DNA from: an uncultured Phycisphaeraceae bacterium
GTDB taxonomy: Bacteria; Planctomycetota; Phycisphaerae; Phycisphaerales; UBA1924
Direction: 5' to 3'
NCBI GenBank assembly: GCA_964391865.1
Contig: CAYMNQ010000003.1
Coordinates: 1 to 64,000, forward strand
DNA: 64,000 nucleotides
The notes beneath the pieces are model-generated. The model saw only the letters and a list, made by a program, of their open reading frames with translations. It was not told where the DNA came from and did not search any database. The position numbers and the translations under genes were made by a program. Shown here in pieces: positions 8,520 to 59,332 of this stretch. How positions within the stretch are numbered: position 1 is the stretch's first letter; every line of letters begins with the position of its first letter.

Positions 8520-8727
8520 ATTCGTTCTCTCATCAGCTAAGCAGGGAGGACTTCGCACATCGGCTCGTCACCCGCGATGAGACGCGGCATGATTATTGTG
8601 AAGTTCACGTTGTATCAGCGTGATTTCCTTTGGTGTTGATTTGGGTGAATGGCAGACTGCCTACGGCTTGTTTGCCGCTGGTGTTTTGCGTTTCTGCATT
8701 TCATCTCATTCTCTGAAAGGCGATCTG

Positions 8728-11197: not shown

Positions 11198-11563
11198 GTG
11201 ATTGTGCTGGTGTTGTACGCCGTGCCGGTGTGGGCGCTGATCTACCTGCTGCGCCGGCGGGTGGTGGGGCTGGTTGTGTTGGGGGTGGCGACGGCGTTGG
11301 TGCCGCTGCTGATCCATGTGGAGTCGGCGGCGATCGGGCCCTGGGCGGGGATGCTGCGGATCATCGGGGCGTCGTACGCGGGGCTGATCGCGGTCGTGGG
11401 TGTGCTGCTGTGGTTGCAGCGCCGTGCGGCGCGGGGTCACGAGTGCCGGCACTGTTTGTACGACCTGACGGGGAATGTCACGGGCGTGTGCCCGGAGTGC
11501 GGGCACGTGACGCCTGATGTGACGGCGGGGGAGGTGCGCCGGGCGAAGAAGGGGAAGGCGTAA
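11198..11563 (+). CDS. small membrane protein with C-terminal zinc ribbon (short member of the C-x2-C...CPECG family)
   Basis: Two TM helices then RRAARGHECRHCLYDLTGNVTGVCPECGHV. This matches the tail motif of the three larger paralogs (48806..49525, 49527..50219, 58172..58936). GTG start; GGAG upstream. Confidence 0.5.
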   Translation: MIVLVLYAVPVWALIYLLRRRVVGLVVLGVATALVPLLIHVESAAIGPWAGMLRIIGASYAGLIAVVGVLLWLQRRAARGHECRHCLYDLTGNVTGVCPECGHVTPDVTAGEVRRAKKGKA

Positions 11564-35238: not shown

Positions 35239-35320
35239 GGCGCGAGCAAGGCTACCCGAGCGACATCGAACGAACGCGGCAAGCACCGATCGCGTACAAG
35301 TGTGCTGGCGCTTTGGGCCG

Positions 35321-36988: not shown

Positions 36989-36994
36989 CGCGGC

Positions 36995-37939: not shown

Positions 37940-37984
37940 ACATCCTCCACGCCGTTTCTGGCTTTGCGCCCATCGGCCCGCGCG

Positions 37985-38941
37985 TCACGCGCGATTCAAA
38001 TCCGCCATCGAACGCCCCAAGATACGCGACCAAAGCCCGCCCAGCAGCCCGCGCCCGCTATGAAACTCCACCCGATGCCGGAGGAGCGCCGCCGATTCAG
38101 CCCCGCGCCGCCGCGCCATCACTCCGATCCCGTGCCGCACGATGCGCCATAGACCCCCGGCCAGTGTTCGAGCGAACAGACGAACAGACGCTCGTTCGGG
38201 CAGCAGCACGCGCTGCCGCGAGTACTCGAAGACGAGCCTGCTCATGTACCGCTGTGTCGCGCGCTCCGGGTGCACCCAGTGCCGCACGCTCGCCCGCGGC
38301 GTGTAGAACACGCCGAACCCCGCACGGATCGCGGACTCGATGAAAACCGCCTCCTCGAACCCGCCGAGACTGCTGCCCTTCCGCCCGAGATCCGTCCGGA
38401 ACGGTCCGACGCGGCCGAAGACCTCTCGCCGAAGCGAGAAGTTCGCCCCGAACAGGTCGGGGGTCGAGAGTTCGAGAATCTGATCGCCCCGGTCATGCGA
38501 CGCAAGCAGCCACTCCAGTTCCTTCGGCAGCCACGCCGGGCGCTCGACGGCTTCCCACCAAAGATCCACGCGCCCGCCCACGATGCCCACCCGCTCACCG
38601 CGCGTGCGATAGATGTCGAGCAGTCCGTCAAGCCAGTCGGGATCGACCAGCACGTCGTCATCGGTGAACACCAGGATGTCATGCCGCGCTTCCGCAATCG
38701 CGCGATTTCGCGCCACGCTGAGCCCGGGTTCTGGCTCGCCGACCACCCTCATAGCAAACGGCATCCGCGCCGACCACTCGCGCCCCACGTCTTCGGAGCC
38801 GTCCGTGCATGCGTTGCACACCAGAATGAGTTCGGCGTCGACACCCGCCGGAACGCGAAGTCGGGTCAGCCCTTCCAAGGTCTGCGCGAGTACACGCCGC
38901 CGGTTGTACGTGCAGATCAAGATCGAGACACCCGTGGCCAT
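37985..38941 (-). CDS. family-2 glycosyltransferase (copy A of a tandem pair)
   Basis: SILICTYNR start. DxD in FTDDDV. Paralog of 36995..37939. Confidence 0.8.
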   Translation of the reverse strand: MATGVSILICTYNRRRVLAQTLEGLTRLRVPAGVDAELILVCNACTDGSEDVGREWSARMPFAMRVVGEPEPGLSVARNRAIAEARHDILVFTDDDVLVDPDWLDGLLDIYRTRGERVGIVGGRVDLWWEAVERPAWLPKELEWLLASHDRGDQILELSTPDLFGANFSLRREVFGRVGPFRTDLGRKGSSLGGFEEAVFIESAIRAGFGVFYTPRASVRHWVHPERATQRYMSRLVFEYSRQRVLLPERASVRLFARTLAGGLWRIVRHGIGVMARRRGAESAALLRHRVEFHSGRGLLGGLWSRILGRSMADLNRA

Positions 38942-38955
38942 TCAGCGCCCCCGAT

Positions 38956-39795
38956 TCACCCGGTCTGTGACGGCACTTGATGCTGAACGCCAAATTGCAC
39001 GCTCACCGGCGGCGAGTTCTTCAAGCATCGAAAACCGAACCGTGCGCCGCCGGACAAGAGGTCTTCGGACAGCTGCTCCAGATCGTACGGCGCGTGCGTT
39101 TCCACGATCATCCGTTTCACCCCCCCGATCCACCCCGCGCACGACGCGAATACCTCCGCCTCCGCTCCCTCGATATCACATTTCAGCAGGTCGATCGCCC
39201 CGCCGATCCCCGCGCGCTCGAGCACATCCGTCAGCGTAATCGCGTCCACCTCCGCGGTCGCCCCGCCGCCCCCCGAGCCCGAGTCCTTCATGCGGAACCC
39301 CCACGCTAAGTCCGACCGGTCGAGGGTCACCTTCCGGCGCGCTCCCGCAACGCACGCCTGGATCAGCGTCACGCGCTCGGGGCTCGGGCCCGCGTCCACG
39401 TTCCGTCGGCATACTTCCATGTTCGATGCGTCAGGCTCCACCCCCGCGATCCGCGCGTGCGGGAACCGCTCCTGCCACAGCCGGATCGATAGCCCCACAT
39501 TCGCCCCCAGATCGACCACCGCGCGGACGTCGCCCAGTTCGGAATCGAGCACCGGCGCGTACTCGCGTTCGCGGAACATCTCGTCCGCGACCAGGAGGTC
39601 GCTCGTCCCGAGTCGGATGAAGTAGTCCCCCTTCTGCCGCGCAAACCGCACGCGTACGATCGCACCGCGCCCCGGGAGCGGCCAGCCCCGACAGCGCAGC
39701 AATAGCCCGCTGTACAGTCCCAGTACCCAGCTCCGCGCGTCGCCGAAGCGGGCGCGGGACAATTTCAGTCGTCGGATGAACGTTGTGGGGCTCAT
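38956..39795 (-). CDS. FkbM-family methyltransferase
   Basis: DLGANVGLS SAM motif. FkbM-like C-terminal KCDIEGAEAEVF. Confidence 0.75.
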   Translation of the reverse strand: MSPTTFIRRLKLSRARFGDARSWVLGLYSGLLLRCRGWPLPGRGAIVRVRFARQKGDYFIRLGTSDLLVADEMFREREYAPVLDSELGDVRAVVDLGANVGLSIRLWQERFPHARIAGVEPDASNMEVCRRNVDAGPSPERVTLIQACVAGARRKVTLDRSDLAWGFRMKDSGSGGGGATAEVDAITLTDVLERAGIGGAIDLLKCDIEGAEAEVFASCAGWIGGVKRMIVETHAPYDLEQLSEDLLSGGARFGFRCLKNSPPVSVQFGVQHQVPSQTG

Positions 39796-39941
39796 GCGGT
39801 CGCGGTTCGGGTCGGAGTTCCTCGGCTCATTGATCGTGCAGCTACGGCGGATTGTGTCACAGTTCGGGCGTTTATGCGGCCGATGGAGTGTTGATACTAC
39901 ACTCCGCCCGTCTCGCCTCTTTTCGCTTCAAGACTCCCCGC

Positions 39942-40646
39942 ATGACCCCCCACACGAACGACAAACTCCACCTCGGCTGCGGGCTCACCGCGCCACCCAC
40001 CTGGCTGAACGTCGACGGATCGTGGGGCGCGCGTCTCGCGAAATACCCGCTCATCAAGAAGTGTCTTGCCGCTGTCGGCGTCGTGAAGAAGCACCAGGAC
40101 GAGATCTCCTGGAGCCGCGACATTGTCATCGCCGACCTCACGAAGCCGCTGCGCTTCCCCACCGGCCGGTTCACCGCGGTGTACGCCTCGCACACACTCG
40201 AACATCTCTATCTCGATCAGGCCGACGCACTGCTCCGCGAGAGCTTCAGGGTGCTTAAGCCGGGTGGCGTGGCCCGCTTCGTCGTGCCCGATGTCTTCGC
40301 CATCCTCGAGGAGTACTACGGGCGCCAGAATCTCGAGGGCATCTACTACCCCGCCGCTGACAAGTCGCGCGCCGACCGACTGAACATGCGCCTGCTCATG
40401 CACCCCTGGAACGCACCCCGCGGCAACTTCCTCTGGCGCGCCTACAACGCCGCTATGAACTTCCACGACCACAAATGGATGTACGACACCGACTCGCTCG
40501 CCGACCACATGCGCGCCGCCGGCTTCGTGAACGTCCAGCCCCGCGGCTACCTCGAGAGCGCCATCCCCGACCTCGCCGATGTCGAACGGCGCGAGCGTGT
40601 CGAAAGGGGCGTCGGCGCGGTCTGCGAAGGCGTGAAACCATCCTGA
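39942..40646 (+). CDS. class I SAM-dependent methyltransferase (copy 1 of tandem pair)
   Basis: KLHLGCGL motif I; RVLKPGGVARFVVPD motif. About 65% identical to the next gene. Confidence 0.7.
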   Translation: MTPHTNDKLHLGCGLTAPPTWLNVDGSWGARLAKYPLIKKCLAAVGVVKKHQDEISWSRDIVIADLTKPLRFPTGRFTAVYASHTLEHLYLDQADALLRESFRVLKPGGVARFVVPDVFAILEEYYGRQNLEGIYYPAADKSRADRLNMRLLMHPWNAPRGNFLWRAYNAAMNFHDHKWMYDTDSLADHMRAAGFVNVQPRGYLESAIPDLADVERRERVERGVGAVCEGVKPS

Positions 40647-40658
40647 ACCCGAGCCGCC

Positions 40659-41363
40659 GTGCCAACCCCCACCCACGACAAACTCCACCTCGGCTGCGGG
40701 CTCGTCACGCCGCCCGATTGGCTCAACGTCGACGGCTCGTGGAACGCGCGCCTCAATAAAGTCCCCGGCGTGCGCCCGCTCCTCGGCGCGCTGGGCGTCC
40801 TCGGCAAACGCGAACGCGGCACCGCCTGGAGCACGAGCGTTTACTCAGCGAATCTCAACAAGCGCCTGCCGTGGGCCGACGCGTCATTCACCGCCGTGTA
40901 CTGCTCGCACACGCTCGAGCACATGTACCTCACGAAGGGCCAGGAACTGCTCCTCGAGTGCCGGCGCGTCCTCAAACCGGGCGGCGTGGCCCGCTTCGTC
41001 GTCCCCGACCTCAAGACCATCGTGCAGGAGTACCTCGGCGGCCCGCGCCTCGATCACTGTTTCCCGGAGTCGCCGCGGAACGCGCCCCCCGCCGATCGGA
41101 TGAACGACCGGCTGCTCTACCACGAGCGCTTCCCGCTCAAGGGCAGCATCCTCTGGCGGATGTACTCCGCCGCCTTCGGCTTCCACTGGCACAAGTGGAT
41201 GTACGACTCCGACTCGCTCATCCATCACATGCGCCAGGCGGGCTTCGATGACGTGCGCGAACATCCGGTCTTCGACAGCCGCATCCCCAACATCGAAGGC
41301 ATCGAACGCCGCGAGCGCGTCGCCGACGGCGGCGGCATCGCCGTCGAGGGCGTGCGTGAGTAA
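40659..41363 (+). CDS. class I SAM-dependent methyltransferase (copy 2 of tandem pair)
   Basis: Same motifs as copy 1. GTG start 12 nt after the previous stop. Confidence 0.7.
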   Translation: MPTPTHDKLHLGCGLVTPPDWLNVDGSWNARLNKVPGVRPLLGALGVLGKRERGTAWSTSVYSANLNKRLPWADASFTAVYCSHTLEHMYLTKGQELLLECRRVLKPGGVARFVVPDLKTIVQEYLGGPRLDHCFPESPRNAPPADRMNDRLLYHERFPLKGSILWRMYSAAFGFHWHKWMYDSDSLIHHMRQAGFDDVREHPVFDSRIPNIEGIERRERVADGGGIAVEGVRE

Positions 41364-41604
41364 ACTCGACGGTTTTCACGCCGCACAAACATAACCTGAA
41401 CCGGACGATAACACGCTCCCGCGCCGTCCCCAAGTCGCAGTCGCCCGCTGATCCGGCCGATGGACCATCCGCCGCCGCGTGCGTCGGGCGGGTCCGCTAT
41501 CCTTGACGCCCCTCTTCGCCGGCGCGGTGGGCGCTCGACGACAGTTCCCCTGCGGGGCCGGGGCCGTGCCGCGTTCCTTGTCTTCCTTTTCGAGGAATCC
41601 CCTC

Positions 41605-42582
<978 letters not shown>

Positions 42583-42585
42583 GAA

Positions 42586-42619
42586 TTCACCACAGAGGAC
42601 ACAGAGAGCACAGAGGTGG
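42586..42619. repeat. inverted copy of a ~30-bp repeat (GTGCTCTCTGTGTYCTCTGTGGTGAA family)
   Basis: ttcaccacagaggacacagagagcacagaggtgg. Its reverse complement matches 43155..43188 at about 30/33 positions. Includes a GAATTC site. Confidence 0.5.
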
Positions 42620-42646
42620 TTCAGAGTTGGGAATGGGTTCAGACCG

Positions 42647-43015
42647 ATGCACGAGCAGTTGACAGAACGGATCATCGGCGCGGCGATCGAGGTGCATCGC
42701 GCGCTGGGGCCGGGCCTGCTCGAATCCGCGTACGAGGCGTGCCTCTGCCACGAACTCTCGAAGCAGGGGATTGCATTCCAACGCCAGGCCGAAATGCCGG
42801 TGGTCTACGACGGCGAGCGGATCGACTGCGGCTACCGGCTCGATCTCGTCGTCGAGGGCTCCGTTATCGAGGAATTGAAGAGCGTCGAAGAACTCTCCCC
42901 GATCCACGAAGCCCAACTGCTTACTTACCTCAGGCTCTCCGGCTTGAAGGTCGGCTTGCTCATCAACTTCAACGTCAATCTCCTCAAGGACGGCGTGAAA
43001 CGCCGGGTGATGTAG
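42647..43015 (+). CDS. GxxExxY protein (PD-(D/E)xK-superfamily, IVS-associated type)
   Basis: [37 protein letters not shown]...[19 protein letters not shown] is the family hallmark. Lower GC. Flanked by the inverted repeats above and below. Confidence 0.8.
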
Positions 43016-43154
43016 ACACTTTGCCTTTACGCCCTCGCAACGCATGGCGGCCACAACAACTACAAACTGATTCTGTTCGTCATCGCTCCCTTCCTCCCGC
43101 TGGCTTTCCGGTTCTTTGTCTCGTCTGGTTCTGACCTGAATTCAATCAGATTTC

Positions 43155-43188
43155 CAACTCCGTGCTCTCTGTGTTCTCTGTGGTGAAA
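43155..43188. repeat. direct copy of the ~30-bp repeat, forming the 5' leader/RBS of ugd
   Basis: ccaactccgtgctctctgtgttctctgtggtgaa followed by AGGTTTGAAGATG. Confidence 0.5.
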
Positions 43189-43197
43189 GGTTTGAAG

Positions 43198-44541
43198 ATG
43201 CGACTGACCATGGTGGGTACCGGCTATGTGGGTCTCGTGACCGGCGTGTGCTTCAGCAACACCGGCAACGATGTCATCTGCCTCGACACCGATAAACGCA
43301 AGATCGACATCCTCCTCGGTGGCGGATGCCCCATCTACGAGCCGGGCCTCACCGAGATGATGGAGAAGAACGTGCAGGCGGGCCGCCTGCACTTCACCAC
43401 CGACGCCGCCAGCGCCTACAAGAACGCCCAGATGATCTTCATCTGCGTCGGCACGCCCACGGGCGAGAACGGCGAGACCAACATGAGCTACGTCTGGGGC
43501 GCCGCCGACGCCATCGGGCAGGCGATCAAGGCGCTCGGCCCGAACCAGGAGCCGAAGGTCGTCGTCGTCAAGTCCACCGTCCCCGTCGGCACCACGCTCG
43601 CCGTCAAGGAGCGCATCAAGAAGATCGTCGGCGATCTCCCCTTCAGCGTCGCCGACAACCCCGAGTTCCTCAAGGAAGGCGCCGCGATCAACGACTTCAT
43701 GAAGCCCGACCGCGTGGTCTGCGGCGTGGAAGACGAGCGCACCGGCGACCTCATGCGCGAACTCTACGACCCCTTCGTCCGCCAGGGGCACCCCATCTAC
43801 ATCATGGACGTGCTCTCTGCCGAGATGGTCAAGTACGCCAGCAACAACTTCCTCGCCACCAAGATCAGCTTCATCAACGAGATGGCCGCCCTGTGCGAAG
43901 CCTACGGCGCCGACATCGGCAAGGTCCGCGAGGGCATGTGCGCCGACAAACGCATCGGCAACCAGTTCCTCTACCCCGGCCTCGGCTACGGCGGGTCTTG
44001 CTTCCCCAAAGACACGCTCGCGTGCATCATGATGGGCAACCAGAAGAAGGTCGCCACGCAGCTCTCGCAAGCCGTGCACGATGTGAACCAGCGCCAACGC
44101 AAGCTCTTCTGGAACAAAATCACCGGCCACTTCGGCGGCGAGAGTTCGCTGAAGGGCAAGACGCTCGCCTTCTGGGGCATGGCGTTCAAGCCGCACACCG
44201 ACGACATCCGCGAAGCCCCCGCCGTCGATCTCATGCTCTGGGCCAAGCAGGCCGGCGCGAAGGTCCGCGGCTTCGACCCCGTCGCCGCCGAGAACGTCGA
44301 GCGCGAAAACCCCAAAGCCTTCGAAATCTCCGACGGGCTGTACGAAACCGCCCGCGGCGCCGATGCCCTCATCATCAGCACCGACTGGGACGAGTTCAAG
44401 CAGCCCGACTTCGGCAAGCTGAAGGAACTCATGAAGTCCGCCGTCATCTTCGACGGCCGGAACCTCTACAAGCGCGACGCGATGGAGCGGGCGGGGTTCA
44501 ACTACTACTCCGTCGGGCGGGCGCCGGTGAAGGCGCGATAG
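43198..44541 (+). CDS. ugd: UDP-glucose 6-dehydrogenase
   Basis: MRLTMVGTGYVGLVTG. Catalytic GGSCFPKD. Full three-domain UGDH. Confidence 0.85.
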   Translation: MRLTMVGTGYVGLVTGVCFSNTGNDVICLDTDKRKIDILLGGGCPIYEPGLTEMMEKNVQAGRLHFTTDAASAYKNAQMIFICVGTPTGENGETNMSYVWGAADAIGQAIKALGPNQEPKVVVVKSTVPVGTTLAVKERIKKIVGDLPFSVADNPEFLKEGAAINDFMKPDRVVCGVEDERTGDLMRELYDPFVRQGHPIYIMDVLSAEMVKYASNNFLATKISFINEMAALCEAYGADIGKVREGMCADKRIGNQFLYPGLGYGGSCFPKDTLACIMMGNQKKVATQLSQAVHDVNQRQRKLFWNKITGHFGGESSLKGKTLAFWGMAFKPHTDDIREAPAVDLMLWAKQAGAKVRGFDPVAAENVERENPKAFEISDGLYETARGADALIISTDWDEFKQPDFGKLKELMKSAVIFDGRNLYKRDAMERAGFNYYSVGRAPVKAR

Positions 44542-44586
44542 TCGCGTCACGCGATTCGACCGATGCCTCGGCGAAGCGCGCCCGCG

Positions 44587-45111
44587 CTACGCGGCACTCG
44601 GCCCGGTCCGCCGCGTCGGTGGCGCCGCGCGCGAGCGGACCGCTTCGATGAATTCGTCCATCGAATCTTGCGGGGAGAACGCTCGCTTCGGCAGCACAGT
44701 CTGAATCCCGAACTGGAACTCGAGCCGGTAGACGTCGCCGAGATCGTCGACCTCCCGCACACTCCGCCAGAAGTGGACGCCCGAGCCCCACTCGTTCGAG
44801 ATATGGACGCCGTCCTCGTCAAGCCAGAGCCGGGTCGGCCCGAGCGGGACCGGCATCTGGCCTGTCCGGACAGACTCTTCCACGGCACGGCGCGCGGCGG
44901 TCTTGAGTGGAGACCTCACAAATCGATGCACGACAACCAGCACGAAGTAGACGCCCAGCATCGCCACCGCAACCCACGCCACCTGATTGGACAGGATCCA
45001 CTTCACTACGATAAACGCGGCCAAGCCGACGACGAACAGCGTGGTCCAGACTTTGGATAGCATCCTGTAGTTGTCCAGAACGCTGTTCTTGGACGCGACC
45101 ACACTGTCCAT
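44587..45111 (-). CDS. hypothetical membrane-anchored protein (2 TM plus soluble domain), lower-GC islet
   Basis: MDSVVASKNSVLDNYRMLSKVWTTLFVVGLAAFIVVKW.. with a folded-looking C-terminus (GDVYRLEFQFGIQTVLPKRAF). Local GC about 55%. Preferred over the overlapping plus-strand ORF 44563..45060. Confidence 0.45.
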   Translation of the reverse strand: MDSVVASKNSVLDNYRMLSKVWTTLFVVGLAAFIVVKWILSNQVAWVAVAMLGVYFVLVVVHRFVRSPLKTAARRAVEESVRTGQMPVPLGPTRLWLDEDGVHISNEWGSGVHFWRSVREVDDLGDVYRLEFQFGIQTVLPKRAFSPQDSMDEFIEAVRSRAAPPTRRTGPSAA

Positions 45112-45187
45112 CGCTCGCAAGTGCGCGCCGACCCAATCATCAACAGTCAGCGTGTATTCAAGAGCAGCCGTCGGAATTGCAGTGGCC

Positions 45188-45724
45188 ATGCCACAGGGTA
45201 CCCCGAGCGATCCGAGGAATTCCACGCCGCCCCCCGGCGCGGAATTGTTCACCCTCAACACCAACCCGCACGCGCCGGCAATCATCGCCCGCATCACCGC
45301 CGAACTCACGAGCGAACTCCGCGCCCTCCTGCCCTGCGCCATCATCGAACCCATCGGCGCGACAGCGATCCCCGGCTGCCTGACCAAGGGCGACATCGAC
45401 CTCCTCGCGCGCGTCGAGCCCGCCGACTTCCAAGCCGCCGCCGCTGAACTCGCGCGCCGCTTCACACCGCACCAGACCGAGAACTGGTCGGCGACATTCG
45501 CCTCGTTCGCCACCGAGCGCGACGACATCCCCGTCGGCGTGCAGCTCGTCATCATCAACTCGACCGACGACGCCGATTTCCGCGCGTTCCGCGACCAACT
45601 CCGCGCCAACCCCGAACGAGTCAACGAATACAACGCGCTCAAGCGGTCATGGCACGGGCGACCGATGGCCGAATATCGAGATGCGAAAGAGCAATTCGTC
45701 CGCCGAGTGCTCGGCGCCACATGA
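45188..45724 (+). CDS. grpB: GrpB-family protein (UPF0157 nucleotidyltransferase-fold)
   Basis: IEPIGATAIPGCLTKGDIDLLARV matches the GrpB core; about 178 aa. Confidence 0.65.
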   Translation: MPQGTPSDPRNSTPPPGAELFTLNTNPHAPAIIARITAELTSELRALLPCAIIEPIGATAIPGCLTKGDIDLLARVEPADFQAAAAELARRFTPHQTENWSATFASFATERDDIPVGVQLVIINSTDDADFRAFRDQLRANPERVNEYNALKRSWHGRPMAEYRDAKEQFVRRVLGAT

Positions 45725-45821
45725 GGCGCGAGCGCGAATCCGGGACGGCGGGCAACGAAGCACGCGGCGTTGGGCGCACCCCGCGTTCGACGACGCGCTG
45801 ACGCGCTGCCACACTCCCGCC

Positions 45822-46589
45822 ATGAACCGCGACCGCTTCTCCTTCATCGCCCACACGCACCGCGCCATCTGCAACCCGCTGAGCTTCGACAAGCTCGACG
45901 GCGTGATCGCGCGGCTCGAACTTCCCGAGAACGCCGCCGCCATCGACATCGGCTGCGGCAAGGCGGAACTCCTCATCCGCCTCGCGCACGCCTGGGGACA
46001 CCGGGGTGACCGCGGCGTCCGCGCCGTGGGCGTCGAACGCTCGCCGCTCTTCGCCGCCGATGCACAGCGCCGCGTGAACGACGCGGGCTTCGCCGAGCAC
46101 ATCGCCATCCACGAGACCGACGCGCTCGCGTGGCTCAACGCCAACCCCGCCCAGCGCTTCGACCTCGCCTGCTGCACCGGCTCGCTCCACGCCCTCGGCG
46201 GCTACGAGCCCACCCTCCGCACGCTCCTCGATCGGCTCAACCCCGCCGGCTGGCTGCTCATCGCCGAGGGTTTCTGGGCCAAGCCCCCCGCGCCCGAGTA
46301 CCTCAAGTTCCTGGGCGATGACGAATCGCAGTTCACCACCCACGCGGGCAACATCGAGCGAGCGATCGCGTTGGGCCTCACGCCCCACTTCGCCGCCACC
46401 GCGACGACCGACGAGTGGGACGACTACGAGTGGACCTACTCCTCAACCATCGAATCGCACGTCCGCGAGAACCCGGACGATCCTGATGCGAGCGAGATGC
46501 TCGCCCGCATCCGCCCCTGGCGCGAGGCGTATCTCACATGGGGCCGCGAGACGCTCGGCTTCGGCGTCTATCTCTTCCGCGCACCATGA
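45822..46589 (+). CDS. SAM-dependent methyltransferase-like protein
   Basis: AIDIGCGKAELLIRLA motif I. About 255 aa. Start at ATG 45822. Confidence 0.5.
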   Translation: MNRDRFSFIAHTHRAICNPLSFDKLDGVIARLELPENAAAIDIGCGKAELLIRLAHAWGHRGDRGVRAVGVERSPLFAADAQRRVNDAGFAEHIAIHETDALAWLNANPAQRFDLACCTGSLHALGGYEPTLRTLLDRLNPAGWLLIAEGFWAKPPAPEYLKFLGDDESQFTTHAGNIERAIALGLTPHFAATATTDEWDDYEWTYSSTIESHVRENPDDPDASEMLARIRPWREAYLTWGRETLGFGVYLFRAP

Positions 46590-46897: not shown

Positions 46898-47557
46898 TCA
46901 CCGACAATTCGGGCATGGGCACTCGAACCCCCACGCATTGATCACCACCGCCAGATCGCCCAGCCCCACCTGACCATCGCCATCCAAATCCTGCAGCGCC
47001 CGCGGCGAGTCGTCCCCCCACGCGCCGATGATCGACGCGATATCGCCCAGCCCCACGAACCCGTCGCCGTCGAGGTCCGCCGGGCAGTCAGGGATGTACT
47101 CGACATCGAACGATGAATCGGTGAAGCGCCCGATCACCGCCAGGCCGCCGGGCAGCCCGCTCTCCCGCACCATGATCCACGTCGCGAACGGGTTGCCGAA
47201 GAAATCGATCTCGCCGTTCAGATCCGCGGTCTCGAACTCGGCGCTGAACGTGCCCTGCCCGTTCCATCCCAGCGATGAACCGATCACCGCCGTGCCGCGC
47301 GTCGCGTGGATCAGGAACACCCTCACATCCGCGGCGTCATACCCGCCGACCGTCTCAAACGTCGCCCGCACGCGCGTGTTCACCACCCGCCCCTGCGCCG
47401 TGCTGACGATCAGCGACTCCTTCGCCGGCAGCGCGGTCATCTCCTCCGGGATCGCAAAGCTCATCACCCGCGTGTACACCGGGCCCGCCGCCGCCGCCGC
47501 GCCGAGCGATGCGAACACCGCCAGCGCCGCCGCCTTCACCATTCGATGATCTCGCAT
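46898..47557 (-). CDS. small secreted protein with C-terminal dockerin-type module
   Basis: Signal peptide MMRDHRMVKAAALAVFASLGAAAAAG. GGAGGTGG RBS. C-term CPADLDGDGFVGLGDIASIIGAWG...DLDGDGQVGLGDLAVVINAWGFECPCPNCR. Confidence 0.6.
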   Translation of the reverse strand: MRDHRMVKAAALAVFASLGAAAAAGPVYTRVMSFAIPEEMTALPAKESLIVSTAQGRVVNTRVRATFETVGGYDAADVRVFLIHATRGTAVIGSSLGWNGQGTFSAEFETADLNGEIDFFGNPFATWIMVRESGLPGGLAVIGRFTDSSFDVEYIPDCPADLDGDGFVGLGDIASIIGAWGDDSPRALQDLDGDGQVGLGDLAVVINAWGFECPCPNCR

Positions 47558-47612
47558 CATCCACCTCCAGCCCACGCCGATTCAATCGAGCATCTCTCCC
47601 TATGCCGCTAAA

Positions 47613-48836
47613 TCAGGCGACGGTTTCCTCGCCGCCGTCATCGCCCTCCGCCCCCACCCCGGCTCCCGCCGTCTCGCGCGGGAACCAGCGCAGACCGCCC
47701 GCTTCGAACTCATCCAGCGCCGCGCGCACCCCCGCCGCGTCCGGCGCGGTGCGCACCCGCTCGCGCAGCGGCTTGCACGGCCCCAGCTTCTTCGCGAACC
47801 ACGCGATCCGCCGCCGGATGTGATTCATCGCGTACCGCTCGTCGCGGTATTCGAGCATCAGGGCGAAGTACCGGCGGATGATCGCGAGTTTTTCCGCGAG
47901 CGGGGGGTCGGCGGGGGAAAGTCCAAAGTCCAAAGTCACAAAGTCCAAATGCTGGCGTGACCCGGTCTGGCTCGGGCTCAACTGTCTTTCAATTGCACTT
48001 TGCTCATTTGCACTTTGGACTTTCTGAACCTCCCACCCCTGCCGGAAGATCCACGGCGCCGCCAGCGCCCCGCGCCCGATCATCACGCCGTCGCAGCCGG
48101 TGCGCTCCATCATGTCGATCACGCCGAGGGCGGTGGTCACGTCGCCGTTGCCGAGCACGGGGATCGCGCCGTCAACCGATTCGACCACGCGACGGATGCC
48201 CTCGTGGTTCACGCCGCCCGTAAACTTCTGCTCCGTCGTGCGCCCATGCACCGTGACGAGTTGAATCCCGGCGCCCGCGAGATCGCGCGCCAGCCGGGGG
48301 GCGACGAACCGCTCGTTATCCCAGCCGAGGCGCATCTTCGCGGTGACGGGCACGCGCCCGGCGCTGGCGCGCTCCGCCGCGCGGACCACCATCTCCGCGA
48401 GGTGCACCGTGGCGCACGGGTCGCACAGCAGCATCGACCCGCCGTTCTTCTTCGTCACTTTGTCGACGGGGCAGCCCATGTTGATGTCGATCACCGTCGC
48501 GCCGTGATCGACGGCCCAGCGCGCCCCCTCCGCCAGAATCTCCCCCTCCGCCCCGTACAGCTGCATGCACAAGGGCTTGTCCAGCTCGTTCGTCGCCGCC
48601 AGATCAAGCGAGTGCATCGACCCGCGCAAGAGCCCGTGCGGCGAGAGCAAATCCGTACACGCGAGGCCAAGCCCGCCCTGCTCGCGGCACACAATCCGGA
48701 ACGCCAAATCGCAATACCCCGCGATCGGCGCGAGCAACAGATTGCTCCGCAGCGTCACCGCCCCGATCGTCAGCGGCACGCCGACACGCGGATTCGCGCG
48801 AGCGCTTAAGCGGGTTGGCTGGGAGGTGTCGTGCAT
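47613..48836 (-). CDS. dus: tRNA-dihydrouridine synthase carrying an in-frame ~36-codon insertion
   Basis: Dus motifs LAPIAGYCDLAFR, DINMGCP, GRGALAAPWIF. Between PWIFRQ and the conserved C-terminal helix lies QGWEVQKVQSANEQSAIERQLSPSQTGSRQHLDFVTLDFGLS, encoded by the low-GC palindromic element at 47917..48024. Confidence 0.75.
   Translation of the reverse strand: MHDTSQPTRLSARANPRVGVPLTIGAVTLRSNLLLAPIAGYCDLAFRIVCREQGGLGLACTDLLSPHGLLRGSMHSLDLAATNELDKPLCMQLYGAEGEILAEGARWAVDHGATVIDINMGCPVDKVTKKNGGSMLLCDPCATVHLAEMVVRAAERASAGRVPVTAKMRLGWDNERFVAPRLARDLAGAGIQLVTVHGRTTEQKFTGGVNHEGIRRVVESVDGAIPVLGNGDVTTALGVIDMMERTGCDGVMIGRGALAAPWIFRQGWEVQKVQSANEQSAIERQLSPSQTGSRQHLDFVTLDFGLSPADPPLAEKLAIIRRYFALMLEYRDERYAMNHIRRRIAWFAKKLGPCKPLRERVRTAPDAAGVRAALDEFEAGGLRWFPRETAGAGVGAEGDDGGEETVA
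47917..48024. repeat. MITE-like low-GC inverted-repeat element inserted in-frame within dus
   Basis: GAAAGTCCAAAGTCCAAAGTCACAAAGTCCAAATG ... CATTGCACTTTGCTCATTTGCACTTTGGACTTTC. The outer 13 bp are perfectly complementary. About 108 bp, a multiple of 3. GC far below its surroundings. Confidence 0.5.
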
Positions 48837-49525
48837 GAAGAGGAGGGAATGGTAGCCCCGCCGCATTCCGGGCAGCGGGCGGCGCTGAGGCCGTGAAGGT
48901 CGTAGCCGCACGCGGGGCAAAGTCCGCGCTGGCGGCGGCGCAGCCGGCGAGTCGTCGGAACAACAGTGATCGCCGCGAGCCACAGCGCGGCATAGAACAG
49001 GGCATCAATCAACATCGCGGGACAGAGTGCCGACGTCGGTAGAAGAATCAGCGAGTGGTGAGGATTCGCCGATCGCTTGGTCCAGTTCGGAACGCGCAGC
49101 CCTTCACGTACTCGCGTGGCGCTATACGGCTCGTCGGGGTAGTCAGCCGTTACGGCCGAACCACGAAGGCACTTGAACGGCCAACCTGCGCGGTTCACAT
49201 GAATGAAGTGAGTGATCGTCGGGAGATTGTCACGCCACCCAGCCGTCCACCGGGGCGCGACATCGATCCTGCGCTCAAAGTAGTACGCCGGGTGTGTCAT
49301 GGCGCGATAGGGATGGAGCCCCAACGACGAGTAGCCGGTCCACTCCTGAAGTTGCCCGTGCCAATACTGTTGTTCCGGGCTTCGAAACTGCGCGCCATCG
49401 GGCGGACGCGTGGCGAACGGTCCGAATCGAAGCTGAGCGGACATCGAGATTCCCCATGCCACCGCCACCGTCGTCAACACGCCGAGCGCGAGACACACCA
49501 CCACTCGCCACACCCAGCGCCGCAT
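48806..49525 (-). CDS. membrane protein with periplasmic domain and cytoplasmic C-terminal zinc ribbon (family member P2)
   Basis: N-term MRRWVWRVVVCLALGVLTTVAVAWG (TM1). Periplasmic segment contains GWPFKC. TM2 is followed by RRLRRRQRGLCPACGYDLHGLSAARCPECGG. Start chosen by homology to the adjacent paralog. Confidence 0.55.
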   Translation of the reverse strand: MRRWVWRVVVCLALGVLTTVAVAWGISMSAQLRFGPFATRPPDGAQFRSPEQQYWHGQLQEWTGYSSLGLHPYRAMTHPAYYFERRIDVAPRWTAGWRDNLPTITHFIHVNRAGWPFKCLRGSAVTADYPDEPYSATRVREGLRVPNWTKRSANPHHSLILLPTSALCPAMLIDALFYAALWLAAITVVPTTRRLRRRQRGLCPACGYDLHGLSAARCPECGGATIPSSSCTTPPSQPA

Positions 49526-49526
49526 C

Positions 49527-50219
49527 TCAAGGCTCCGTGACAACGACCGCCGACTTAGGCTGCGCCCATGATGCAATGACCGAATCACCACACTCAGGGC
49601 AACGAGAAGAGTGGAGGCCGACCAGACAATACCCGCACCCGCCGCATTGGTTTCGCTGCTGCCTCCGCCATCGAATCAGGATGCGCGGGAATGGGATGAG
49701 TCCAGCCAAGAGAATTGCATAGAAGATCGAGCTGAGGGCCAGCCCGCGCACGATCGGTGAGTGTGGCAGTGGGAATCGAGCCGGAGTGGTGTTGGTGGCC
49801 GTTGGCGGTGTGTAACCAGTGAAGAGAACAGTGCTGCTCAAGTCGATGCGGCTCTTTCGTTCGCTCGATTGGACACATCTGAATGGCCATCCATAGGCCG
49901 TGAGTGTCAGATCAAAGTCCTCGGCGGTAAGAGCGCCTTCGGCGGTGCTCACAGCCCAATCCGCAAGTGCAACTTCGGGCCCGATGGCGACGCAGAGGCA
50001 ACTGCTCGGTGTTCTCAGCCGGTAACGATCACTGATCCAATCTCTCTCGCGAACACCGTCGATGCTGGGCTCTCGGTCGATCAGAATGACGCGGTTCACA
50101 CGCAGCGATGGCCCGACCGGTGCTGCGCCGCGCATCAGTATTGATACCCACGGCAGCGCGACCGTTGTCAGCACGCCGAGTGCCAAGCACACCGGGATTC
50201 TCTTCACCCATCGCCGCAC
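49527..50219 (-). CDS. membrane protein with periplasmic domain and C-terminal zinc ribbon (family member P3, tandem with P2)
   Basis: MRRWVKRIPVCLALGVLTTVALPW; GWPFRC; RWRRQQRNQCGGCGYCLVGLHSSRCPECGDS. Its stop lies 1 nt from the P2 start. Confidence 0.55.
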   Translation of the reverse strand: MRRWVKRIPVCLALGVLTTVALPWVSILMRGAAPVGPSLRVNRVILIDREPSIDGVRERDWISDRYRLRTPSSCLCVAIGPEVALADWAVSTAEGALTAEDFDLTLTAYGWPFRCVQSSERKSRIDLSSTVLFTGYTPPTATNTTPARFPLPHSPIVRGLALSSIFYAILLAGLIPFPRILIRWRRQQRNQCGGCGYCLVGLHSSRCPECGDSVIASWAQPKSAVVVTEP

Positions 50220-50250
50220 GCGCGACCTCCCGCGCCGAACGTCGCAGTCT

Positions 50251-50372
50251 TCCGGCTCCCAGCCTCAAGCTCCAAGCTTCAAGCTTCCGGTCTCCGGCCC
50301 CCAACTCAAAACCCCCAACCCAAAACCCGCAGCACTCAGCACTCGTTCCTCAGCACTCAGCTCCCCCGCTCC
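50251..50372. repeat. low-complexity direct-repeat tract upstream of P3
   Basis: cctcaagctccaagcttcaagcttcc; ccaactcaaaacccccaacccaaaaccc; gcagcactcagcactcgttcctcagcactcagc. Resembles the CTCAAA/CTCCAA units of the IRs at 15785 and 16238. Confidence 0.4.
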
Positions 50373-50833
50373 GCCGCCGCCTTCATCGCGTTCAAATCCC
50401 CCTCGAGCATTTTCTTCATCGCGCCCTTCATCATCAGCCCCATCAGCGGCGACATGATCTTCGCCATCAGCGTCACCGGTCGCGCCGTCGTCGTCATCAC
50501 GACGTCGGTTCCGCCGGAACCACCGGGACTACCCGCGCCGCCCGTCGGCGTGAATGTGAAGCGCGTCGCGTACTCCACGCCGCAGGATGTGCAGCCGACG
50601 GTGTACGCCCGCCCCGGCTGGAACTCGGTGAACTCCATCGTCTCCGTCGCCGTCTTGCCGAACATCACGCGGCTCTCGCGGAAGCGCGTGCCCGTGCCGA
50701 TCGGCCCGTCGGTCAGCACCTCCAGCGCGGTGATCCCCTTGATGTGCTTCGGCGCCTCGCGCACATTCGAGAAGACCTCGAACACGCGATCGACCGGCGC
50801 TTCAACGCGCACGCGGCTCTCGAACATCGCCAT
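50357..50833 (-). CDS. SRPBCC-superfamily protein (polyketide-cyclase/START-like)
   Basis: 158 aa, MAMFESRVRVEAPVDRVFEVFSN.. typical of Polyketide_cyc2-like proteins. GGAGG RBS 8 nt upstream. Confidence 0.6.
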   Translation of the reverse strand: MAMFESRVRVEAPVDRVFEVFSNVREAPKHIKGITALEVLTDGPIGTGTRFRESRVMFGKTATETMEFTEFQPGRAYTVGCTSCGVEYATRFTFTPTGGAGSPGGSGGTDVVMTTTARPVTLMAKIMSPLMGLMMKGAMKKMLEGDLNAMKAAAERGS

Positions 50834-56168: not shown

Positions 56169-57302
56169 TCAGGCGCTGACGTAGCGGGCGTAGAGCGCGC
56201 GGGCGCGCTCGGGTTTGCTGGTGCCGGTGAAGATGGCGCGGCCGTCGGGGAAGAGGGTGAGTTCGATGGGGGTTGCTCCCGATTCGTCGGCGCGTTCGGT
56301 GGTGAAGCAGCCGCGGACGAGGAAGCGGGTGGCGGTGAAGTCGCCGTGTGGTGAGAGTCGTGCGGCGGCGGCGTTGAGGTCGAGGCGCTGGGTGGATTCG
56401 GTGATGGTGGGGGTGACCTGGACGCTCGCGCGGCCACAGAGGGCGGCGGCGGCGGAACCGTGTTTGCCTTCGAGCCAGTCGAACTGATGGAGCGCGCAGC
56501 AGGGGCAATCGGCGCGCGGGTGATCGTCGGTGAGCACGCGGCGTGATTCGAAGGGTGAGAGTGTGATGGTGAGCAGGCCGCGGGTGAGCGCGGCGGTGTG
56601 GCCGCTGAGGAGCGTGATGGCTTCGGCGGCCTGGAGTGCGCCGAGGAGCGCGGTGAGCGGCGGGAAGACGCCGGCGGTCTCGCAGGTGGGCGCGGTTCCG
56701 GGGGGCGGCGGGTCGTTGAAGAGGCAGCGCAGGCAGGTGGTCTTGCGCGGTTGGATGCGCTTGAGCATGCCCGATGTGCCGACAGCGCCGGCGTAGATGA
56801 GCGGGAGGTTGAGCGAGACGGCGGCGTCGTTGAGCAGGTAGCGCGTCTCGAAGTTGTCGGTGCAGTCGAGCAGGACAGTGGGGCGGTCGCGCGGCCCGAT
56901 GAGGCGCGCGATGGTGCGGTGGGTGCAGTCCTCGGCGCGGGGCGTGATGGTGATGGTTGAGTTGATCTGGCGCAGCCGGCGCGCGGCGGCCTCGGCTTTG
57001 GGGAGCGCTTCGCGCGCATCGGCTTCGTCGTACAAGGTCTGGCGGTGGAGGTTGGAGAGTTCGACGATGTCGCGGTCGATGAGGATGAGTTCGCCCACGC
57101 CGGCGCGGCAGAGGAGTTCGGCGGCGGGTGAGCCGAGCGCGCCGCAGCCGACGATGACGGCGCGGGAGTTGAGGAGATGGCGTTGGCCGGAGTCGCCGAG
57201 CTGGGGGAGGAGCATCTGGCGGTGATAGCGCGCGAGAGCCGCGGCGTTTGCTGAAGAATCAGCGGGCGGGGAGGCGTGTTGTTGGAGCGCGGGGGTTGGC
57301 AT
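56169..57302 (-). CDS. ThiF/MoeB-family E1-like adenylyltransferase with C-terminal extension
   Basis: VIVGCGALGSPAAELLCRAGVGELILIDRDIVELSNLHRQ. CxxC pair (CLRC...CPCC). About 100-aa C-terminal extra domain. Confidence 0.75.
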   Translation of the reverse strand: MPTPALQQHASPPADSSANAAALARYHRQMLLPQLGDSGQRHLLNSRAVIVGCGALGSPAAELLCRAGVGELILIDRDIVELSNLHRQTLYDEADAREALPKAEAAARRLRQINSTITITPRAEDCTHRTIARLIGPRDRPTVLLDCTDNFETRYLLNDAAVSLNLPLIYAGAVGTSGMLKRIQPRKTTCLRCLFNDPPPPGTAPTCETAGVFPPLTALLGALQAAEAITLLSGHTAALTRGLLTITLSPFESRRVLTDDHPRADCPCCALHQFDWLEGKHGSAAAALCGRASVQVTPTITESTQRLDLNAAAARLSPHGDFTATRFLVRGCFTTERADESGATPIELTLFPDGRAIFTGTSKPERARALYARYVSA

Positions 57303-57383
57303 GGGGGCATCGGCGCGGGAGAGTCATCGTATTCGCGTGCTGGGGTGACGGGGAGGGGTGAGGCGGTGACGCTCGCGTGATCG

Positions 57384-57413
57384 CACGACAATCCGGAGGA
57401 ACCGGATTGTCGT
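57384..57413. promoter_or_regulatory. perfect 13-bp inverted repeat (CACGACAATCCGG-AGGA-ACCGGATTGTCGTG) upstream of the thiF-ribE operon
   Basis: Read directly. Lies 82-111 nt upstream of the thiF ATG (57302) on the transcribed side. Candidate operator or RNA hairpin. Confidence 0.3.
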
Positions 57414-57482
57414 GGCACGGGGGGTGCAGGCGACCGATGCATGGGCGCGGGTTGAGTTGGCGAGTTTGGCTGAGTCCAAGAC

Positions 57483-57530
57483 CCCTCTCCCCCTCCCCCC
57501 GGATTCTCCCCCTGAGGGGGAGGGGGTGGG
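57483..57530. repeat. GC-rich palindromic element (CCCCCTCCCCCC..TCCCCCTGAGGGGGAGGGGGTGGG)
   Basis: Nested perfect complementarity: CCCCCTCCCCC pairs with GGGGGAGGGGG, and TCCCCC with GGGGGA. Followed on the plus strand by TTGTTCGTTGTT. Confidence 0.45.
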
Positions 57531-57564
57531 TTGTTCGTTGTTCCGGCGTGTTCAGTGCCATCAT

Positions 57565-57883
57565 CGTCGGAGTCTTTGCGGCGATCGTGCCGGGCGATGA
57601 AGCGGAGGAGGGCGGCGGCGGCTTTGCGGCGCGGCTCGAGCGCGGTCGCTTCGTCGAGCATCATCGTGCAGAGGTTGGCGACGGCGACGGAGAGGTGCGT
57701 GCGGGCGAGGTCGAGGGCGCGGGCGGCGTCGACGCGCGCGACGCGGGCGCGCGCTTCGGCGACGGAGGGATCGGCGAGCCAGGCGTCGAGGAGGCGGGTG
57801 GTGGTGCCGTGCTCGGCGTTGAGCTGCTCGTCGGGGATGCGCGGGCTGAGGTAGGCGGGGAAGAAGTGACAGAAGCCCGGCAT
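57565..57883 (-). pseudogene. protein-like reading frame (MPGFCHFFPAYLSPRIPDEQLNAEHGTTTRLLDAWLADPS...) with no in-frame stop before the palindromic element
   Basis: High GC3 and protein-like composition for about 105 codons starting at ATG 57883. The frame then runs straight through the GC palindrome and on into the antisense of thiF without a stop (track ORF 55145..57991). Confidence 0.25.
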
Positions 57884-58095
57884 GTCGGCGGCGGGCGTGG
57901 GGAGCGGCGGGAGGTTGCTGGGCGGCTGGCGGATTTCCGGCGCTTGGCGCGGCGCGCGATCGGATGGTTGGTTGTTCCCCGGAGCGTGCATGGGGGGATC
58001 ATGCGCCGGGGTTGATGAGGGTCAAGCGCGATGGGGGGTAGGTTCCGTTTTTTGCGGCGCAATCGTGAACATGCGCGTGAATTTTGTGTTGTGAG

Positions 58096-58210
58096 GGCGT
58101 TTGACCTTGAGCATCAGGGCATGCTCGGGCGTCCAGTTGCGGGGTGCTTGATCCTGAGCGTCGGAGCACGCTCAGGCGTCCGTGGTGCTGATTTCTGCGG
58201 GGTATTTGGT
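58096..58210. repeat. hairpin-containing repeat overlapping the 3' end of zinc-ribbon gene P4 (two tandem GAGCRT-n-AYGCTC-RGGCGTCC units)
   Basis: gagcatcagggcatgctcgggcgtcc and cctgagcgtcggagcacgctcaggcgtccgtggtgctgatttctgcggggtatttggtgg. The second unit recurs at 59086..59170. Confidence 0.45.
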
Positions 58211-58936
58211 GGTGGCGTTGTTGGCGGCGCCGCATTCTGGGCATGGGGTCGTTGGCGAGAGACCTTGGAGGTCGTAGCCGCAGGAGAGGCAGGCGTTTCG
58301 GCGGCGACGAGCGCGCGGGCGGAGCGCGGTGGGGATGAACAGGAGCGCGAACCAGAGCGTGGCGTAGAGAGCAGAGTTGATGAGGAAGGCGGGCCAGATG
58401 GGGCGGTAGGGGAGTGGGATGTACCTGGTGAGAGACGGATACTGTCCCGGAAGTTCGACCGCGAACGCACCTTTGAATTCTGGACGAGATTGCTGCAGGT
58501 ACGAGATCGTTGCAGTCTCGTCGGCGATGAGGGGCACATGACCGAAGAGAAAACTTCTCAGCGGCCACCCGATCGCGGTTTCGAAATGGTCTCTGTACCT
58601 CAACGGTCTCTTCGCCATGATCTCGCGTTCGTCCGGCGACCATATCGAGGACCACACTGGAGGACGCGACTTAGCTTGTCGTATGAACCACGCGGGATTA
58701 ATGTCCTGGCTCTGATCGAATCGGCGGGCGGACCACCACACATCGGTTCGTCCGAACTGATCGCGAAGTGATGCCTCGCAGATGTAGTCGTCGAGGCCCA
58801 GGTAGCCGAGGCGTGTGCCGCCTTGCTTGATCGGCAGCCACCAGGTGATCGCCCACGCGACGGCGATGTTGGTCAGCACACCCAGCGCGGCGCAGAGCAG
58901 CAGTCGGCGGATGAATCTGGCGCGCCCCTTCGGCAT
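58172..58936 (-). CDS. membrane protein with periplasmic domain and C-terminal zinc ribbon (family member P4)
   Basis: MPKGRARFIRRLLLCAALGVLTNIAVAWAITWW (TM1). GWPLRS; NSALYATLWFALLF (TM2). RPRARRRRNACLSCGYDLQGLSPTTPCPECGAA. Confidence 0.55.
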   Translation of the reverse strand: MPKGRARFIRRLLLCAALGVLTNIAVAWAITWWLPIKQGGTRLGYLGLDDYICEASLRDQFGRTDVWWSARRFDQSQDINPAWFIRQAKSRPPVWSSIWSPDEREIMAKRPLRYRDHFETAIGWPLRSFLFGHVPLIADETATISYLQQSRPEFKGAFAVELPGQYPSLTRYIPLPYRPIWPAFLINSALYATLWFALLFIPTALRPRARRRRNACLSCGYDLQGLSPTTPCPECGAANNATTKYPAEISTTDA

Positions 58937-59085
58937 GGTGATTGAGGATAGGTGTGGCGGCGTTGTTCGTGGCGGGGACAACGAGGGTTCGCGCGGGCTT
59001 GGGCGTTCGTTGGTGGGATCGGCGCTGGTGTTGATCTTCGGCACCGAGGTCGGTCAGAGCACCGACCTCGGTGGCACGCGGCGTG

Positions 59086-59170: not shown

Positions 59171-59332
59171 CTTTCGGTTCCCGAACGTGCGGGGGCTGCG
59201 GGAGTGATTGGAGTTGTTCGCGGGTGTGATTGGAATTGGCGGATCGCCTACACTCTTTCTCCCCCGCGTCCGGCGTTTTGCTGGGTGCGGGTTGAAGTTC
59301 AACCTGTTGATGTTCAAGGAGTTTTCTCGCCC

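Follow-up and report, generated by a model that had tools for sequence, protein, structure and literature searches.

We examined a 64,000-nucleotide (nt) stretch from an uncultured Phycisphaeraceae bacterium (contig CAYMNQ010000003.1, positions 1 to 64,000; hereafter the window) and found that three of its genes, here called A, B and C, are members of a very large, lineage-specific family of small membrane proteins from Planctomycetota (mainly Phycisphaerales). In this family, a constant membrane hairpin and zinc ribbon very probably form a scaffold that displays a periplasmic, beta-rich domain of 60–170 amino acids (aa). Close relatives carry entirely different sequences in the middle of the gene, which encodes this ectodomain and is exchanged as a whole, and arrays of such genes expand and contract. 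A fourth gene, D, shares the Arg cluster and ribbon alone. The family cannot be assigned to any described family or system by sequence, fold, genomic context or literature; it resembles two known kinds of genes, those for membrane proteins capped by a zinc ribbon and polymorphic genes in which a variable middle lies between conserved ends.

As a working definition, family members have a basic N-terminus, a first transmembrane segment (TM1, LGAITTVAVAWG), a GWP motif, a PxWPGF motif leading into a second transmembrane segment (TM2), an Arg cluster and a CxxCGYDLxG...CPECG ribbon. A, B and C fall within this definition, while D, with its ribbon alone, falls outside it (Table 1). A preliminary description of the window had grouped all four open reading frames (ORFs), each of which is present, into one family, and had named a failure to align outside the ribbon as grounds for rejecting it. 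A, B and C can be aligned over their full length (BLASTP E-values of 1e-20 for A–B and 1e-15 for A–C) and have in common TM1 (LALGVLTTVAVAW), GWP, the block formed by TM2 and the residues before it, and the ribbon; they are thus full-length paralogues, and D does not align beyond the Arg cluster and ribbon. Scanning all six frames of the window for C..C.Y.L.G.{2,9}CP.CG returned four sites, which are those of A, B, C and D. As this pattern fixes nine residues, including four Cys, four matches in ~128,000 six-frame codons would be far beyond chance. A tblastn search of the window with 68 family members found no additional or degenerate copies. The motifs themselves vary somewhat: the described CGYDLxG holds for A, C and D, while B reads CGYCLVG (with GWPFR in its ectodomain), and A has CPAM before TM2 where the family has the PxWPGF-type motif. 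GC content at third codon positions (GC3) is 0.71 in A, 0.65 in B and 0.75 in C, compared to 0.84–0.94 in neighboring genes.

In an alignment of 68 sequences, the N-terminal consensus is M[KR]RWxxRIxxCLxLGAITTVAVAWG, followed by a ~140-residue variable region with GWP, then LPLxPIWPGFxINTLFYAAIW, and finally a C-terminal consensus of RRxIRRxRGRCPxCGYDLRG-x5-CPECG. G15, G114, P116, C203, C206, Y208 and C218 are invariant in these sequences, and C221 is at least 90% conserved; G114 and P116 are the only invariant ectodomain positions, with W115 joining them in a 12-sequence subset. The four Cys lie in two CxxC knuckles conserved across homologs, as expected of a zinc-ribbon fold. Within the constant scaffold, TM1 is rich in small residues, TM2 is aromatic, the LPxxPxWPGF motif before TM2 would be interfacial and the ribbon is juxtamembrane. 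Ectodomains typically span ~130–150 aa (median 141, full spread ~60–170 aa; ~135 aa in A, B and C), so the earlier estimate of ~170 aa was too high. The shortest members (P0010, P0013 and P0025; 159–166 aa) retain TM1, GWP or GFP, TM2 and the ribbon around an ectodomain of only ~60 aa, and a further variant among database proteins has CAYPxG…CTECG in place of CGYDLRG.

Most members show two hydropathy peaks. The density of Lys and Arg per residue falls from 0.38 in the N-terminus (a basic peptide of ~7 residues directly before TM1) to 0.10 in the middle and rises again to 0.29 beyond TM2, which fits the positive-inside rule and predicts an N-in/C-in topology with the ectodomain outside and the ribbon in the cytoplasm, as the preliminary description had placed them. 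The order of elements in an AlphaFold2 model of A agrees (family alignment as input; predicted local distance difference test (pLDDT) 83.8, predicted template modeling score 0.79): a helix at residues 2–33 (pLDDT 94–98), eight beta strands and one short helix within residues 43–163, a second helix at residues 170–199 and then the ribbon. The model of C (pLDDT 74.6) has the same element order with a less confident ectodomain. With two hydrophobic segments, these proteins would be hairpins rather than bitopic, as had been described, unless TM1 is a signal peptide cleaved between AVA and WG. We lean towards the hairpin, as TM1 contains an invariant Gly, is internal in fused multi-unit proteins and covaries with TM2, the last being confounded by two sub-clades.

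Replacement of the ectodomain was observed by comparing the A locus with L084, a syntenic Logan contig from a close relative. Its flanks match those of the window closely, with pterin-4a dehydratase 95% identical (both aa and nt) and Dus ~93–95% identical (nt). The family gene of L084, however, is only 45% identical to A overall (aa), and this identity is unevenly distributed: 63% aa (74% nt, with similarity staying at ~74–80%) in TM1, 28% aa (39% nt) in the ectodomain, 81% aa (79% nt) in the Arg cluster and ribbon, and 93% aa (91% nt) in the tail. Over the ectodomain, A and the L084 protein are no more alike than the paralogs A, B and C are to each other. At the RGLCPAC codons, DNA identity rises from ~50% to ~93%, with a breakpoint at ~48928, immediately 5′ to the first Cys codon. 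L084 holds a single gene at the site occupied in the window by an SRPBCC gene, B and A; this gene combines a leader and first codons of B type (~90% identity) with a 3′ end of A type. As SRPBCC and B are absent from an otherwise 95%-identical locus, SRPBCC-B-A can be regarded as an indel or replacement unit.

The same pattern was seen in five more syntenic pairs (L058/L063, L008/L065, L013/L066, L043/L062 and L054/L063), whose flanks are 80–94% identical (nt). In these, high-scoring segment pairs extend ~80 nt into the gene, break off across the ectodomain and pick up again at TM2 or the ribbon. Three of the five pairs have copy numbers of 6 vs 1, 2 vs 1 and 3 vs 3, and ribbon stretches are 98–100% identical between copies over 46 nt. 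At the protein level, family genes in syntenic pairs are 36–48% identical, compared to 86–95% for their flanks. A segment cannot become unalignable by neutral drift when adjacent intergenic and synonymous sites are 87–95% identical, and therefore the middles have been exchanged by recombination and not altered by point mutation. For this exchange, the conserved DNA at the 5′ end (TM1) and 3′ end (TM2 and ribbon) would serve as homology arms. A metagenome scan for further alleles of the Dus locus yielded distant relatives only (67–75% nt identity), with no family member beside Dus. Constant parts flanking a strain-replaced exposed part are known from flagellin, type IV pilin and immunity or identity arrays (orphan immunity arrays, Proteus IdsD/IdsE). 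As in these systems, genes of the family lie in tandem, vary in copy number and recombine at their conserved ends; the family differs in having no sequence or fold relationship to them, in being predicted to sit in the cytoplasmic membrane facing the periplasm, and in having no toxin, pilus or flagellar genes linked to its loci.

Gene D had been described as a family member lacking the middle domain. Its alignment with A is limited to 31 residues of the Arg cluster and ribbon (BLASTP E-value 9e-6), and the family hidden Markov model matches it only at profile positions 177–226. For this reason, we place D outside the family: judging from its sequence, it is a different protein with three hydrophobic segments of its own followed by the same C-terminal module. 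Its GC3 of 0.91 is typical of the genome, and variants at ≥90% identity are present in related strains.

Such sharing of the ribbon appears to be common in the lineage. Among ORFs adjoining family members, the C-x2-C-G-Y-D-L-R-G...C-P-E-C-G motif was found after an MFS-like transporter, between the transmembrane segments of a HEAT-repeat membrane protein, ahead of or separating the transmembrane segments of small proteins, doubled, and at the end of various proteins with 1–4 transmembrane segments. In most of these settings, a transmembrane helix and basic residues lie alongside. A database search with the ribbon module for other architectures returned short proteins or fragments only. The ribbon is thus probably a lineage-wide juxtamembrane cytoplasmic module, and its presence on unrelated membrane proteins points to a lineage-specific cytoplasmic tag. 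Generic C4 ribbons (DZR PF12773, Zn_ribbon_3 PF13248 and zinc_ribbon_2-type; NrdD, bL32, eL37, Nop10) likewise have two CxxC knuckles, the second being CPxCG, and a loop between them that is short and sometimes expanded, and their profiles match weakly. No described ribbon family, however, has the GYDLRG motif between the knuckles, the obligatory adjacency to a transmembrane segment and Arg cluster, or the architecture to which the ribbon is attached here. In L067 (4221–4886), a half-ribbon (CPRCGYDLRG…) fused to a pretoxin-HINT domain adjoins family members; this single case is the only sign that polymorphic toxins might be connected with the family.

Full-length copies frequently occur together, with 2–6 copies in 31/81 loci. 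Adjacent copies are on the same strand in all 63 pairs (63/63) and often abut, as do B and A, where 1 nt separates the stop codon from the next start. Natural fusions of 2–3 units, with or without an internal ribbon, exist among many database proteins, and for one two-unit fusion (P0017), all single-unit homologs align to one half only. These fusions are topologically consistent and suggest that units work jointly. A −10-like hexamer was found 6–8 nt before the GTG or ATG start in 49/120 family genes (38 loci), with TAGAAT in 25, compared to 8/3160 control positions; this fixed spacing predicts leaderless transcripts and a promoter for each unit. In arrays, the TAG stop codon of the upstream copy forms part of TAGAAT. 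Gene C has TATCCT-N8-ATG at its start (58936), unlike A and B, which have GGAG-type Shine-Dalgarno sites.

The preliminary description had expected a much larger genomic expansion beyond the window, and this was borne out. While a single-sequence search with A found 264 proteins, all of them "hypothetical" or misnamed and without a Pfam domain (the named entries coming from metagenome-assembled genomes (MAGs) of Phycisphaerales), a profile search of 1.84 billion representatives clustered at 50% identity gave 61,043 matches at E ≤ 1e-3, 13,852 at ≤1e-10 and 3,863 at ≤1e-30. A scan of one genome per species with the 12-sequence subset alignment confirmed 83 loci, of which 80 were kept. All of them come from MAGs of Planctomycetota, mostly Phycisphaerales, and one MAG contains at least 7. 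Individual members can be highly diverged, with the best homolog of C outside its own strain being 30% identical (among 5.8 billion proteins).

The expectation that no characterized family would account for these proteins also stood, as there was no Pfam or NCBIfam assignment and no relevant literature. In Pfam, zinc-ribbon models (DZR, DZR_2, Zn_ribbon_3, Zn_Ribbon_1) scored below threshold (15–17 bits vs cut-offs of 25–27), and NCBIfam likewise gave only sub-threshold zinc-ribbon scores. The PDB contained no significant fold match, with a profile search of PDB sequences returning generic Zn knuckles only, and literature searches on the motif and on Phycisphaerae with zinc ribbons found nothing relevant. 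Readings of the family as cohesins, pilins, MscL, ZAS or targets of diversity-generating retroelements were considered and found to be unsupported.

In genomic context, BLAST clustering of all flanking ORFs from the 80 loci revealed no recurrent partner, only shadow ORFs of the family itself. A Pfam census covered the gene closest to the family gene or array on either side (74 genes upstream and 65 downstream, from 80 loci). Each Pfam family turned up in 3 loci at most, and the recurrent neighbor families listed included no extracytoplasmic function (ECF) sigma factor and no secretion component. The proposal of a polymer-export accessory was therefore not upheld, as no secretion component is among the families listed, nor was that of a signaling or anti-sigma-like module, as the census gave no recurrent sigma neighbor. 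In the window, the neighbors of A, B and C are Dus, SRPBCC, pterin-4a dehydratase, ThiF and citrate synthase.

Constant ends around a variable middle usually mark genes of recognition or conflict, and our tentative preference, held with rather less than even confidence, is that the variable ectodomain is a recognition or protection surface. The variable domain would be under diversifying pressure and would bind or exclude antagonists entering the periplasm, such as phage components or toxins, or would serve in self/non-self recognition. Adjacent and fused units may act as hetero-oligomers, and the ribbon may be a shared cytoplasmic docking or anchoring tag. A more elaborate version is doubtful: that Phycisphaerales hold a cassette-shuffling receptor repertoire with dozens of units per genome, whose strain-specific sets decide phage or toxin sensitivity or kin recognition, and that all units report via, or are organized by, one cytoplasmic reader of the GYDLRG ribbon as a docking tag.

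Several points weigh against a recognition or protection role. No experiment or partner ties the family to phages, toxins or kin recognition, and its neighbors are mostly housekeeping genes, not defense or toxin islands. PADLOC and PHROGs gave nothing below an E-value of 0.04, with weak matches confined to the ribbon or transmembrane regions, and a pattern search of IMG/VR found no relative (an absence that also rules against a viral origin). The ectodomain faces the periplasm and not the cell exterior, unless the protein is processed, and hetero-oligomers are suggested by the tandem arrangement and fusions only. Replacement is frequent, not universal: conserved orthologs exist (76–90% identical in L025/L051, L080/L083 and one L008/L029 pair), and strain L085 matches the C locus at 97% identity over 58229–59068. 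Ectopic recombination among so many paralogs could also shuffle cassettes without selection for diversity. Finally, mutual information reaches 0.56 between TM1 and TM2, compared to 0.34 between TM2 and the adjacent ribbon, but the TM1–TM2 covariation is confounded by two sub-clades.

If the ectodomains do exclude phages or toxins or recognize self, they would offer a view onto biological conflict in Planctomycetota, about which, to our knowledge, almost nothing is known. The family is in any case among the larger uncharacterized ones of an environmentally abundant lineage, with tens of thousands of proteins carrying the ribbon module, and it shows in concrete form how a protein of the cytoplasmic membrane can be hypervariable in one segment, with recombination boundaries at the TM1 and zinc-ribbon codons. 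It merits a Pfam or NCBIfam entry, as members are now annotated as unrelated hypotheticals.

Among other explanations, the proteins may be transmembrane sensors, forming a repertoire of receptors of an anti-sigma-like or one-component-like kind. Their ectodomains would bind periplasmic ligands, and their ribbons would capture or attract a cytoplasmic regulator, for example a sigma factor, whose gene lies elsewhere. A variable domain outside with a small, conserved metal-binding module inside would fit a sensor, a common ribbon on many membrane proteins would suit one shared partner acting in trans, and Planctomycetota are rich in ECF sigma factors. ZAS anti-sigma factors likewise combine a membrane protein, a small cytoplasmic zinc element and an extracytoplasmic domain. 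However, their zinc element is an N-terminal H-x3-C-x2-C within a helical anti-sigma domain and their ECF sigma gene is adjacent, whereas the family lacks this motif, has its zinc module at the C-terminus and has no sigma factor or regulator recurring among the genes of the neighbor census. The cytoplasmic part is also just ~35 aa, and wholesale allele replacement between strains would be unusual for nutrient or stress sensors. We consider a sensor function unlikely.

On the same footing, and just as unlikely in our estimate, is that these are exported surface proteins in which TM1 is a Sec signal peptide (cleaved after AVA) and PGF, TM2 and the Arg cluster (with or without the ribbon) form an exosortase- or archaeosortase-like sorting signal. 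Such processing would leave the hypervariable domain anchored on the cell surface, where phage and grazers could reach it. The N-terminus (MKRWxxR-IxxCLxLGAITTVAVA-WG) has a basic n-region and an h-region of ~15 residues, and LPLxPIWPGF-TM-RRxIRRKRG resembles PGF-CTERM and PEP-CTERM tripartite signals in form. The motif (here PxWPGF), transmembrane segment and Arg cluster are shared with the PGF-CTERM/archaeosortase, PEP-CTERM/exosortase and GlyGly-CTERM/rhombosortase systems, whose signals, as here, occur in large paralogous families with variable middles; export and sorting signals in surface-protein families do yield conserved ends around a variable middle. Those signals are C-terminal, though, whereas here the motif, transmembrane segment and Arg cluster precede a folded ribbon of 25–40 aa, which is itself also found on polytopic proteins and N-terminal to transmembrane segments. 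No NCBIfam sorting-signal model matched (E ≤ 1), an exosortase-like gene was not among the recurrent neighbor families listed, and no exosortase, archaeosortase or rhombosortase was seen in the window or in the ~12-kb flanks of family loci. The features of TM1 that led us to favor the hairpin, including its internal position in fused proteins, its invariant Gly and its sub-clade-confounded covariation with TM2, together with the confident AlphaFold helix that fits a hairpin, also argue against a cleaved signal peptide.

The two-helix hairpin could itself be the functional part, as an oligomeric channel, pore or membrane scaffold with the middle as a tolerated loop, and this we regard as improbable. 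Conservation is strongest in TM1 (rich in Gly, Ala and Thr), TM2 and the juxtamembrane region, fusions of 2–3 units imply multimers, and ectodomain length varies from ~60 to 170 aa. The layout is also that of MscL, which has a basic N-terminus, a small-residue TM1, a loop, an aromatic TM2, a charged cluster and a cytoplasmic domain. The likeness ends with layout, however, as there was no Pfam match to MscL or any channel family (E ≤ 1), the ectodomain keeps its GWP motif and beta fold, and dozens of divergent paralogs per genome with active replacement of the middle would be left unexplained. Lastly, the low GC3 of A, B and C, the degenerate ribbon motif of B and database entries that are all "hypothetical" might suggest decaying or spurious ORFs whose similarity is a low-complexity artifact of a high-GC genome, but this is effectively refuted by the conservation pattern (thousands of intact homologs with invariant Cys, Gly and Pro), and confident AlphaFold models and the promoter-like element at fixed spacing also stand against it.

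Table 1 Coordinates of family genes, their parts and associated features in the window.
Feature	Position	Strand	Details
Gene D	11198..11563	+	121 aa, GTG start; ribbon at 11444-11503
Gene A	48806..49525	-	239 aa, ATG start; downstream half of tandem pair; identical to P0001
C4 zinc ribbon of A, CPACGYDLHGLSAARCPECG	48860..48919	-	Motif scan
TM2 and Arg cluster of A	48929..49018	-	Residues 170-199; AlphaFold helix
Ectodomain segment of A	49019..49447	-	~Residues 27-169; hypervariable cassette
GWP motif of A	49178-49186	-	
TM1 of A	49448..49504	-	Residues 8-26; hydropathy; invariant Gly15, AVAW motif
Gene B	49527..50219	-	230 aa, GTG start; upstream half of tandem pair; identical to P0018
Zinc ribbon of B	49587..49646	-	Motif scan
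Leader of B	50220..50361	-	Three heptanucleotide repeat runs; GGAGG 6 nt before GTG
SRPBCC (Polyketide_cyc2) gene	50357-50833		Present in window, absent from L084
Gene C	58172..58936	-	254 aa, ATG start, solitary; reading frame open to 59044
Zinc ribbon of C	58229..58291	-	Motif scan

The window is otherwise ordinary chromosome, with PhoD, PFK, a subtilase, a polysaccharide-synthesis cluster, Dus, ThiF, citrate synthase and an LpxA-like protein. The polysaccharide cluster (34928–46589), upstream of the A/B locus, contains a Wzx-like flippase, two GT2 glycosyltransferases, several methyltransferases, an epimerase and UDP-glucose dehydrogenase; it showed no recurrent association with the family at other loci in the Pfam neighbor census. 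Two secreted proteins carry dockerin-like (type I) C-terminal modules flanked by Cys, one (8620–11082, + strand) directly upstream of D and the other (46898–47575, − strand) ~1.2 kb from A. The ectodomain was considered as a cohesin partner of these dockerins and rejected, as it had no cohesin match and no cohesin was found.

Gene C lies between ThiF (56169–57323, − strand) and citrate synthase (59204–60523, + strand). Compared to L085, a ~660-nt indel follows position 58229, at the 3′ edge of the C ribbon (its last ribbon codon). The ~660 nt that are extra in the window, between the C ribbon and ThiF (57237–58228), are unannotated and GC-rich, and include an ORF in the frame of C (…MPGFCHFFPAYLSPRIPDEQLNAEH…) without similarity to the family. 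At the other locus, the terminal 31 nt of A (48806–48836) overlap the start of Dus (MHDTSQ…), as is also the case in L084. The 137-nt spacer between SRPBCC and B is made up of three consecutive heptanucleotide runs (AGTGCTG, GGGTTTT-like and GAAGCTT) and could be a regulatory or slippage-prone tract. The leader of B is homologous to that of the single L084 allele, and the GAAGCT run recurs upstream of this allele as well as ahead of a family gene in L016.

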